A stretch of DNA of 22,091 nt from Candidatus Micrarchaeia archaeon. GTDB taxonomy: Archaea; Micrarchaeota; Micrarchaeia; CAILAH01. Position numbers: made by a program. The stretch spans positions 1 to 22,091 of the forward strand of contig JAVYLZ010000008.1 in assembly GCA_038740245.1 (NCBI GenBank), in the 5' to 3' direction. The stretch's first letter is position 1, and every line of letters begins with the position of its first letter. Shown piece by piece: positions 15,001 to 18,000 of this stretch.

Positions 15001-18000
15001 ATGTGCCCATAATTGCCTTGCGGGCCCGTAGCTCAGCTTGGCTAGAGCGGCGGACTTTTAATCCGAAGGTCACGGGTTCAAAGCAGGGACCCAGCGGTCC
15101 AGCATGCGCTTTGCGCATGTGGCCTGCAAACATTCTGTTTGCACGGCCCCGCACCCCTTGCAACCAAGCAAGTGGGGGCGGAGCCCCCTTGGGCTGCCAA
15201 AAAATACCTCGCACATGTGGGGGTTTGGGCGGTGGCGGACTAAGGGGGCGGAGCCCCCTTGGGCTGCCATGTGAAAATCCCGTCGGGCCCGTTTTTAATA
15301 AAAATTGCCTTCTTTTAAGGCAAATGTTGCGCTTCGGGCTGTTTAAATACTAGTTGCACAGGAGGAGATGCTAAAGGCATTTATAAATTATACCGCTGAT
15401 TACATAAAAGGTGGTGTAATGAATAGATTCGCGATTGTTGCACTGTTTGTGCTTACGTTCTCTGCAATGACCTATGCAGGAGTTGGCGAAACGCTTAATA
15501 ACCTCTGCTTCCAGGCGAGGGGTCTTATACCGATAGTTGCATTTGTCCTAATCGTGTTCGCAGGTCTTGTGTATGCCGCGGGGCAGGTGCTGGGTGCTGA
15601 GATGCGTTCCAGGACCAACGTGTGGGCGACAACCATGGTCATTGGCGCGATAATCGGCCTGATATTTACGTTCAGCGCACCTGCCATAATCAGCCTTGTG
15701 GCTGGGGCATTTGGGATGGATCTTGAGACCTACGAGTACACGTGTGAAACGCTGCTGTAGAGGGATGCGATGGAGCTGAACGAGACGCTTGCGTACGGTG
15801 CGCTCGGAGCGGGCGGGGTATTCCTGCTGTTCGCCAGCCAGTTTGCCCCCATTGCCCTGCTTTCAATAATCTGTGCACTGCTCGCATACATGTTTTACAG
15901 GTGGGGCAACATCTACGTGCCATTCCTGGTATTCCAAAAAAGGGAAATACAGGTACCATACGCCTTTGAGATTTCGCCTGCAGAGGATGCTGTATTCAAG
16001 CAGGTTGGGGATGATTATATAGCAACAGTATTCCTCAATTTGGATATCTACGAAACGATGACCAACAAGAACCAAGATGAGATAAACGATTATGCGCATT
16101 ACTTTGAGCGCTCAATATCAAGCGTCAAGGACCCCATAAAAATATCTGCAATACTCTACGAGAGGGACATGGGGCGGTATGCTAAGGCAATTGAGGAGAG
16201 GAAAGCTGCGCTTGAGGATAAGATTGCTGCAGAGAGACAGAAGAAAAAGGCGGACCCGCGCACAATTGAAGTGCTTGAGCGCGAAAAGCTTATGTGGGAG
16301 CGGCGGCTTGAGGGGCTTTACAAGTCGTCTGAGCGGCCTCGTGCGGTTGAATACATAATTGCAACTTCCGGGTTTGGGCCGTCACGCGACGCCGCGCTCA
16401 GCGCTGCAAAAACAAGGGCACGGGAGATTAAGGCAACGTTTGCGGGCGGCATGTCCGTCAATGTTGATGAGCTTACACGGAACAGAATGAGGTCCTGCTT
16501 TGAGTGGGAATTCCTTTCCCCAGAATGGTGAGATTGTGCCAAGGATACCCAAGCTGTATATGATTGCCGGCGTGGTCTTTGTAACAGCAATTGCGCTGTT
16601 TATACTGTTCCAGGCAGGAATAGTGATATTTGCAATAGGCCTGCTTCTTGCGCTGCTGGTTGGTGCATTCATTTACTTCGGGCATTTCATCACGCCGCTC
16701 ATAACACGCATAGCTGGCATAACCTACCGAAAAGGTGAGTATATTTTCCCGCCGGGGCAGGATGTGATAGTGAAAAAGAGCGGGGATAAGTATATGGCCG
16801 CCAAATTCATGCTGGTAAACATACCAGAGCGCGAGGAGGTTTCAGGAAAGCGCGAGGAGCGGTCCGAAGTGTACCTGAAGGACTTTGAGGCCGCAGTGAG
16901 CGCGATACACGTGCCTGTGAAATTCAATATGCTGCTCGCGACCAAGGACATAAGCGCCTACAGGGAAAGCATACAGTCCAAGGTATACGAGTACGGACTC
17001 AGGATAAAGCGTGAGATGGAAAAGGCCGAGCCCGACGTGATAAAGCTTGACAAGTGGCAGAAGGAGAAGGAGTTTAACGAGAACCTTCTCAAGCGGCTTG
17101 CAAGCGGCGTGAAGCCGATGGCCTGCGTGATGTATGTTATGACATTGGCCAAGGGCATAACGCAAAAGGAAGCCATTGACAAGGTAAAGGCCAATGCCAA
17201 GGAGATCAAGGCGGTCATCTCAAACAACCTCAACGCCGAGGTAACCGACCTTATTGGCGAGGATGCAGAGCTCTGCCTTGAGTGGGAGCGTGCGCTGCCC
17301 ACAAGCTATGAAGAGCTTGTTGCAGCTACGGATTAGGTGTATGCGATGGGAGTGATAACCGTAAAGAACAGGAAGCTATACAGCTCTGATGTGGCGTCGC
17401 GCGGCATTGTCAGCAGGCCGCCAGAGCCGCCTGCCGAGCTCATAACCGGCGATCCAACAAACTCCATCTATATCGGCAGGACTGCGGTGTTCAACGAGCC
17501 GTTCCACTGGAGCTATGAGAATGTTACAAACCCCCACATCGCAGTGGTTGGTATCTCAGGTGCAGGCAAGTCATACTTCATCAAGACATTTCTCACACGC
17601 GCATCTTTCGTGTGGGGCACAAACGCGCTCATAATTGACTGGGCCGGCGAATATAAGGAATGGGTAAAGCAGGCCGGCGGCAAGGTGCTCGCGCTCGGGA
17701 AGGGGTCATACCTGAACCTGCTTGACCTTGCGGGCATGCGGCCGCTTGACCGCATAAAGCAGATAAGCAGGAGCCTTGAGATACTTACGGACATCGGCTC
17801 ATACCCTGAGCAGAAGCGGCTTACCGAGGAAGCGATCGAGCGCGCATATGTTGACAAGGGGTTCAAGCTTTCCGTAAAGGACCAGAAGGATGCGCTTGGC
17901 AACCCGCTTACTCCCCCCACACTCAAGGACGTTGTGCGGGTGCTTGAGGACAAGCTTGCTTCCGGCACCTATGAGTTCCCAGTAGAGCTTGAAAACGCAA

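Follow-up and report, generated by a model that had tools for sequence, protein, structure and literature searches.

Published archaeal tRNA introns are 11–129 nt long, with medians of 12–25 nt (PMC4090602). In Asgard archaea, 92–95% of the tRNA genes are reported to be disrupted (PMC11291895), with a median intron length of 22–23 nt and copying between genes at 1.5%. The arrival route of archaeal tRNA introns is stated to be open in a 2026 Asgard preprint. Thermoproteales carry near-identical introns in different tRNA genes, for which a DNA-level route has been proposed (PMC4090602, PMC4033280, PMC4390854), and 28.3% of their introns fall into such whole-intron families (10.64898/2026.10.13.758758). 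ARMAN-2 (Ca. Micrarchaeum acidiphilum), from the same phylum as the genome studied here, has introns at position 59/60, genes with two introns, a tRNA-Ile(UAU), relaxed bulge-helix-bulge (BHB) motifs and a splicing endonuclease (EndA) of the epsilon2 type found in relatives of our genome (PMC3239211, PMC12397907).

We analysed a window of 22,091 nt from a Candidatus Micrarchaeia archaeon (G000) together with the rest of its genome and the other genomes of its family, nine in all. The initial annotation had conceded that disrupted tRNA genes in Micrarchaeota are known in kind, and the 59/60 introns, the tRNA-Ile(UAU) and the heavy disruption of ARMAN-2 bear this out (PMC3239211). New here are palindromic repeats in both orientations at tRNA position +1, before duplicates starting at T60, at RNase P RNA, in intergenic sequence and in 5S rRNA. 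Repeat-built introns of this size, similar repeats located at tRNA ends and a BHB-like insertion in 5S rRNA had no precedent in the literature covered, from which some older archaeal intron papers and the ARMAN-2 supplement were missing. We propose, with a probability of roughly 0.6, that stable-RNA genes are colonised by REP-like DNA repeats, which are tolerated at sites where they are removed by the epsilon2 endonuclease or RNase P.

Interrupted tRNA genes and their splice junctions

tRNA genes were located with our own cloverleaf model, which was trained on 55 compact tRNAs from loci of relatives, allows insertions anywhere and contains no splice-motif term. The scan returned 254 candidates; the 38 complete genes scored 41–88 and the next real candidate 20, and a reversed-genome control yielded 228 candidates with a top score of 13. 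Three genes were added from repeat matches, namely Leu(GAG), Cys and Ile(GAU), the last being truncated by the contig end. This motif-free search gives 41 tRNA genes, only three of them intronless, in line with the earlier claim of at least 41. T-loop introns are more frequent than first counted (27 complete ones instead of 24), 33 genes have an insertion at 37/38 and 22 have both. The insertions have a median length of 74 nt, and 15 of the 61 exceed 129 nt and thus the published 11–129 nt range. The longest genes measure 404 and 433 nt, close to the 403–432 nt given before.

Removal of the introns restores a standard cloverleaf: ARAGORN accepts 38/38 spliced products, and 20–21 of 21 stem pairs are formed. 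The locus at C2:12855-13125, previously listed as C2:12856-13125 and as a poor fit, is a good tRNA-Trp with 20/21 pairs. A 22-nt '42/43' insertion in Leu(CAG) proved to be the variable arm and was dropped from the counts. The set covers 40 of 45 anticodons with none repeated except CAU; since it is non-redundant, the interrupted genes must be needed. It had been noted that annotators miss most of these genes and find only 13–18 with ARAGORN or Rfam. They are indeed missed: ARAGORN finds three genes unspliced and 13 with the -i option; a relaxed score gave 101 calls, mostly false. As standard tools see only 3–13 of the 41 genes, tRNA counts in MAG quality estimates are wrong for this family. 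The assembly is 81% complete, and EndA, 16S and 23S genes were not found in it.

Asgard archaea likewise have most of their genes interrupted, many of them by non-canonical introns that annotators miss. Their introns, however, are short (the median of 22–23 nt given above), sit mostly at other positions and are hardly copied, and their arrival route was left open, whereas the introns described here are longer and share modules. In ARMAN-2, 56% of the genes are disrupted (PMC3239211), compared with 38/41 here, where two thirds carry a T-loop intron. The available text on ARMAN-2 (PMC3239211, PMC12397907) makes no mention of repeat-built interiors, in contrast to the repeat-built introns of our genome.

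Because the gene calls were motif-free, testing the junctions for BHB pairing is not circular. Of 26 T-loop introns, 19 form a 4/4 central helix at exactly 59/60 (0.43 expected) and 24 one of at least 3/4 (4.5 expected), which upholds the former finding of 18/24 pairing 4/4 in the 3-4-3 register; two T-loop introns, Leu(UAG) and Trp, fit 58/59. At 37/38, the helix is 4/4 in 14 of 31 introns (0.92 expected) and at least 3/4 in 27 (6.2 expected). T-loop introns of the relatives pair 4/4 in 32 of 46 cases versus 0.67 expected, a count lowered by the inclusion of two mis-joined calls (G001 Asp and G003 Ile(GAU)). The outer helix h, formed by the exon stem, is present in all loop introns, and the h' run is 0–1 bp in most T-loop introns and 2 bp in Lys(UUU); the T-loop introns are of the relaxed hBH type. 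Judged by their sequences, the tRNA insertions are real archaeal BHB introns and would be spliced as such. Rfam matched no group I or group II ribozyme core, either in the window or in 27 further loci.

The EndA gene was said to be missing here and present in relatives; it is absent from the assembly, and PF01974 occurs in 20/20 relatives. In the same-genus genome G002, the one for which the type was verified, EndA is of the epsilon2 type (4FZ2, E 5e-125). The epsilon2 enzyme engages the bulge independently of the overall pre-tRNA architecture (PMC12397907). If such an enzyme, which reads only the junction, also operates in our genome, intron interiors would be neutral space.

Several long 37/38 insertions lack a central helix with the exon. 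In all six of those with a clear ensemble partner, the 3' helix strand pairs internally with a 4-mer rich in purines; AA, the bulge found most often (96 introns), comes next to it on the 3' side. Once the inner part is removed, the outer part pairs 3/4 or 4/4 in 5/6. On this pairing model, the longest 37/38 insertions are probably two stacked introns (287 = 209 + 78, 218 = 140 + 78, 81 = 40 + 41), and the supposed single 287-nt intron of the initial annotation would be such a pair. The stacked fit of Asn was found in three genomes (P 0.005, <0.005 and 0.025), and the helix probability of the Thr pair is 0.87–0.96. Thr, Ile and Val did not reach significance in a gapless test (P 0.085–0.95), and the 161-nt insertion of Pro(CGG) and the 78-nt insertion of Cys remain at 2/4 with no stacked fit. 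An intron within an intron has reportedly been seen in Thermofilum. The tRNA-Met intron is known as a box C/D guide. Box-like motifs are, by eye, kept in the 157-nt Trp and 209-nt Met introns at 37/38, both further lengthened by repeats; the likeness to the box C/D guide intron of tRNA-Trp (PMC4090602) covers only these two introns here.

The tRNA-Lys(UUU) gene and related genomes

The tRNA-Lys(UUU) gene lies on the plus strand at 15022–15291 of the window. It is missed by ARAGORN, and Rfam picks up only its 5' part (34.9 bits, partial). The 5' exon (positions 1–59, 15022..15082, anticodon at 15057-15059) and the 3' exon (positions 60–73, 15278..15291, no encoded CCA) are separated, according to the cloverleaf fit, by a 195-nt T-loop intron at 59/60 (15083..15277), a chain of hairpins. 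The fold of 15070-15290 has a z of -4.5, a value reached by 0/200 shuffles. A probable TATA box, recognised by its sequence, is located at 14990..14996, about 26–32 nt upstream. The 5' half of the BHB (15077..15083) consists of the helix strand 54–57 (15077-15080) and a 3-nt bulge, the 3' half (15272..15278) of the intron helix strand (15272-15275) and a 3-nt bulge. The two strands pair 4/4 by Watson-Crick rules, and the intron strand ends 2 nt before the 3' junction, which is the BHB register. The BHB rule would place the cuts after 15082 and after 15277.

The intron opens with a ~90-nt module (15083..15172, plus strand) common to the T-loop introns of Lys(UUU), Gly(CCC), Gly(UCC), Arg(GCG) and Ile(UAU). 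A 26-nt direct repeat, 100% identical over its length, follows on the same strand at 15174..15199 and 15244..15269; a Logan contig of run X4 has one additional 70-nt unit. In the opposite orientation (15218..15266, minus strand), we found the module that opens the T-loop introns of Leu(UAA) and Thr(CGU), at 86–90% over 48–56 nt. The window also contains tRNA-Ser(CGA) (3664..3747, plus strand), one of the three intronless genes. A repeat array of the same family (3560..3663, minus strand) precedes it, and the terminal hairpin of this array ends exactly at -1 of the gene. The array is placed likewise in the orthologues of G001, G002 and G007.

The Lys(UUU) locus is syntenic with those of both same-genus genomes. 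The orthologous introns measure 56 nt in G001 and 39–41 nt, at 56/57, in G002, and the contrast with 195 nt drawn earlier (56 and 41 nt) is confirmed. Relatives were scanned at Rfam-found loci, 21–30 per genome, which amounts to about half of each set and is biased to short introns; genes scoring below 45 were set aside, as were Asn and Tyr of G002, which contain N gaps. Long introns occur in 6/7 family relatives scanned in number (G001–G004, G006, G007), with T-loop maxima of 83–229 nt, 230 nt in G006, and 37/38 introns of up to 302 and 386 nt. The exception is G005, from another genus of the family, with insertions of 15–112 nt in 18/29 genes and a single T-loop intron of 15 nt. The full ~90-nt module was found only in G000 among the nine family genomes, with pieces in five others, and also in relatives in hot-spring runs. 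Intron size is therefore a family trait, and not species-specific as first suggested; what does hold is the recency of the near-identical module copies.

A palindromic repeat family inside and outside introns

The near-identity of the ~90-nt module among five genes, put at 93–100% before, was reproduced, with differences at 2–3 of 84 sites. Because the module is near-identical while the exons differ (the Lys exons match the other four at 45/75 to 57/75), whole-gene duplication is excluded. The Lys and the two Gly introns are 93–95% identical over their full length and form a family at ≥90% (shuffles 0), and the introns of Arg(UCG) and Arg(UCU) are identical at 73/74 positions. Cross-isotype whole-intron families comprise 3/60 introns at 80% (5%) and 12 at 70% (shuffles 0). 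The clustering resembles that of 10.64898/2026.10.13.758758 but uses our own alignment scoring, so the figures are only roughly comparable with the 28.3% reported for Thermoproteales. At the level of modules, 23/58 introns share at least 30 nt at ≥80% with another isotype. The introns are mosaics in which sharing is mainly of modules, and whole-intron copying is modest. Tandem units of 47, 45 and 41 nt are 98–100% identical, and 47-nt units fill two T-loop introns. Nine of 40 intron–intron matches are inverted. Palindromes are able to mimic opposite-strand matches. Closing stems of 6–7 bp are seen on the repeats; MITEs are characterised by fixed terminal inverted repeats and a target-site duplication. 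We dropped the notion that T-loop introns arose by duplication and decay of the 3' exon, as intron starts are, by eye, unlike their own exons.

Copies also occur outside introns. Of 17 matches to a hairpin-plus-ACCC end motif, 11 are in introns, four in tRNA flanks, one at the 3' end of RNase P RNA and one elsewhere, so that 16/17 lie at tRNA or RNase P RNA genes; a shuffled genome gives 3. In 9/41 genes a reverse-oriented repeat end adjoins tRNA +1, ending at -1. This pattern was defined after viewing G000 and the figure is not a test, but the same end was found in 13/136 genes of relatives, in 0/36 outgroup rows and at 0.3% of random non-coding positions. The reverse complements of the tRNA-Phe and tRNA-Ser(GCU) leaders align with the five-gene module (scores 62 and 42 vs 27 and 22 in shuffles, P ≤ 0.001); the Pro and Ile copies were not significant. 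In seven of the 41 genes the tRNA 3' end is repeated behind a hairpin, 48–81 nt downstream; five of these second copies start at T60, and none was seen in 36 outgroup rows. Pro(CGG) shows such a T60 duplicate though it has no T-loop intron. Relatives have 3'-end duplicates in 10/136 genes; one is a gap artefact, and 7/9 without a gap start at 58–60. P3 of RNase P RNA is expanded in G000 as well as in three relatives; the end of this RNA is adjoined by a repeat in G000 and likewise in G007. One T-loop intron of G007 matches two copies outside tRNA genes at 99/102 positions. Intergenic copies amount to only a handful.

One repeat motif is present in 6/9 family genomes and in 1/292 other genomes of the class. 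The modules are a family-specific palindromic repeat, found in both orientations and also outside introns. Of the proposal that a family of BHB introns is spreading now by module shuffling and tandem repeats, the BHB introns, the modular build, the recent copying and the tandem growth stand; the modules in themselves do not make up a family of introns. Compared with Thermoproteales, the modules here lie inside mosaics, occur in both orientations and outside introns, and intron length is several-fold greater. In our genome the class II tRNAs Leu and Ser also take part in the sharing, which according to PMC4390854 was not seen in Thermoproteales.

Bacteria harbor REP sequences and BIMEs, short non-coding palindromes in mosaic arrays that are associated with RAYT. 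These and the Ssn-linked repeats (PMC11893778) resemble our repeats in being short non-coding palindromes that form mosaics, occur in both orientations and have copies outside the host feature. They differ in having many intergenic copies, where ours are few and nearly all at stable-RNA genes, and in being served by a cognate Y1 transposase (RAYT) or an Ssn nuclease. PF01797 (Y1 transposase; 2/21 genomes searched overall) and PF01541 (GIY-YIG nuclease) were each found in 0/9 family genomes, which are 61–93% complete. The repeats behave like a REP mosaic without being members of the REP class, and the introns belong to the BHB class. Many bacterial genomes contain multiple copies of a similar end motif (70 stretches), which lies beside tRNA genes in 3/71 loci; no protein family recurred beside these look-alikes across genera. 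A weak Rfam match to Clostridiales-2 (22 bits, E 0.098, gathering 58.6), for which we found no paper, is a lead only.

The 5S rRNA gene of G000 is 168 nt long, versus 113–117 nt in 19 other matches. Its 52-nt insertion (C22:900-951) and the intron in the D-loop of Val(UAC) are identical at 40/53 positions. The predicted fold has a 3/4 central helix (pair probabilities 0.93–0.97), a 3-nt bulge and a 9-bp h' but no exon helix h, and removal would yield a 5S of normal length. In a survey of prokaryotic 5S expansions, the archaeal cases in the published text are all from Halobacteriales, with no splicing (PMC7812874). There, too, a hairpin is inserted in the loop C region; those expansions are retained, whereas the insertion in G000 is similar to one of this genome's own tRNA introns and its junction is BHB-like. 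It may be a BHB intron or a retained expansion.

Possible origins of the introns

In our preferred reading, the T-loop, with 54–57 paired to the intron and cuts after 59 and before 60, would provide a splice geometry identical to that of the anticodon loop. With the epsilon2 endonuclease reading only the junction, the interior would be free to lengthen and would be filled by mosaic arrays of short non-coding REP-like palindromes peculiar to this Micrarchaeota family. Copies would spread at the DNA level, by copying or gene conversion between stable-RNA genes with occasional inversion, and would lengthen by slippage into tandem units. They would persist where they are processed away (introns by EndA, leaders by RNase P, and trailers) or where a helix is tolerated, as in P3 of RNase P RNA. 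New introns might also insert where a 3' splice site is already present, and in the stacked pairs so formed the inner intron would be spliced first. DNA-level spread is favoured because both orientations and intergenic copies exist and 8/9 family genomes have no reverse transcriptase (RT). A likely donor of the introns is visible here, with recognisable repeats, recent copies in and outside introns, and nine family genomes comparable site by site; as a source of archaeal introns, the repeat family is open to testing. Natural substrates for the epsilon2 EndA would include long hBH introns, stacked pairs and possibly a 5S intron.

A bolder version is put forward only tentatively: a tiny non-autonomous palindromic element may insert selectively at stable-RNA processing junctions (tRNA -1/+1, 37/38, 59/60, the RNase P RNA end, 5S loop C) and be the direct source of new BHB introns, including stacked introns of fixed order and an EndA-spliced 5S intron. 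Against the preferred reading, no mobilising enzyme was found (Y1 transposase, tyrosine integrase and GIY-YIG nuclease each in 0/9 family genomes, 61–93% complete), and repeat junctions lie at RNA processing ends (-1/+1, 37/38, 59/60 and the RNase P RNA 3' end); for leaders and trailers, survival alone is insufficient to account for this, and the pattern fits an RNA-level route equally well. A DNA mini-hairpin test was weakly informative: triloops were seen in 22/50 and 33/89 cases (29% in shuffles), G..A loops occurred on either strand, and UUCG was present in 1/139. The Cas12f/TnpB-like gene of G000 is not flanked by repeats, and the five spacers of its CRISPR array match no introns. The Lys(UUU) intron had no match in plasmids or phages, nor a 36-nt intron piece in JGI metagenomes, nor one repeat motif in IMG/VR, apart from one unrelated match in another search.

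Whole-intron transposition of the Thermoproteales type followed by slippage, with no separate repeat family and with flanking copies as by-products of gene conversion, would explain why the Lys/Gly/Gly introns and the Arg(UCG)/Arg(UCU) pair (73/74) match over their full length at the same position and in the same orientation, and why the 3' flanks of three Arg genes are common at 89–95%. We regard it as unlikely, given that just 3/60 introns are in cross-isotype families at 80%, against 28.3% in Thermoproteales (10.64898/2026.10.13.758758), and that inverted modules and copies in leaders, RNase P RNA, 5S and intergenic sequence exist.

Alternatively, EndA products or excised introns could be mis-ligated by RtcB to exon or RNA ends and returned by reverse transcription, giving swapped and stacked introns and 3' duplicates starting at T60. 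The junctions coincide with RNA ends, which keeps this RNA-level route under consideration: 3' duplicates start at 60 in 5/7 genes (58–60 in 7/9 cases in relatives), stacked introns have a splice site in common and repeat ends adjoin mature RNA ends. However, RT was found in 1/9 family genomes and not in G000, opposite orientations are present, and Pro(CGG) has its duplicate without a T-loop intron. RNase P leaves a 5' phosphate, and RtcB does not join such ends, which also speaks against this improbable route.

The second 3' ends in 7/41 genes (0/36 outgroup rows) recall att-like duplications of nt 60–73, and scars of integrative elements in the T-loop have been put forward for Caldiarchaeum (PMC3293823); the trailers would then hold shrunken cargo, and introns would remain, kept as protection, where the tRNA end was not restored. 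This is quite improbable here, as tyrosine integrase was found in 0/9 family genomes (61–93% complete), no plasmid, phage or IMG/VR match was obtained, and the copies in leaders, RNase P RNA and 5S are left unexplained.

It is hardly credible that the loci are artefacts of assembly or pseudogenes from a bin of mixed origin: repeats do break contigs, three contig pairs overlapping at 73–89% confirm the second population suspected in the bin, and none of the listed Logan pieces spans the whole Lys(UUU) gene, but there is one gene per anticodon, the BHB motif is enriched, six other genomes share the architecture, overlapping contigs of run X1 tile 15083-15619 at depth 16 on the shared module vs ~4.5, and in run X3 a relative combines a 5' exon of identical sequence with an intron of 34 nt inserted at this position.

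Insertions in structured RNAs

The 5S rRNA gene of the source genome (G000) contains an insertion of 52 nt that resembles a bulge-helix-bulge motif (contig C22:900-951, locus L104). This insertion is a relative of the D-loop intron in tRNA-Val(UAC), and it was not found in 19 other 5S hits. RNase P RNA (C1:5454-5801, L296, and further loci L289-L295) has hairpin expansions that vary by lineage: four genomes are expanded at helix P3, and the relatives G002 and G004 in other helices. A possible small RNA lies on the minus strand of G000 at C23:5220-5290 (L304). The candidate has a TATA box, a terminal stem and motifs resembling boxes C and D; a repeat hairpin comes after it, and Rfam gives no match.

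Recombinases, reverse transcriptase and neighboring genes

We did not find a tyrosine recombinase (PF00589), XerA-like enzymes included, in any of the nine family genomes (G000 and eight others). A single reverse transcriptase was found in the family, at C26:45301-45948 (L265) of the relative G007, in a frame of 442 aa. In the window, tRNA-Lys is preceded by a 916-aa ORF (12240-14990) without a Pfam match and closely followed by a small T4SS-pilin-like gene (15419-15760; PF18895, E 0.0009, under the cut-off).

Various bacteria (Geminicoccaceae, Phycisphaeraceae, Acetobacteraceae and Clostridia; L314-L383) carry multiple copies of a palindromic repeat composed of GGGGGTT plus a hairpin; no protein was found associated with it.

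Assembly and a CRISPR-linked locus

Repeat-filled tRNA introns run off the contigs of the relative G003 (L252, L256-L258, L262, L264), and intron sizes and tRNA counts are therefore probably underestimated in short-read MAGs. The G000 bin contains a second population, seen as overlaps at 73–89% identity between contigs C1/C14, C21/C40 and C29/C36.

Contig C1 of G000 also carries a locus (58810-61280, L266) that may be a compact type V system: a Cas12f/TnpB-like ORF of 583 aa, then an extended non-coding region and a CRISPR array of six 36-nt repeats with spacers of 36–44 nt.
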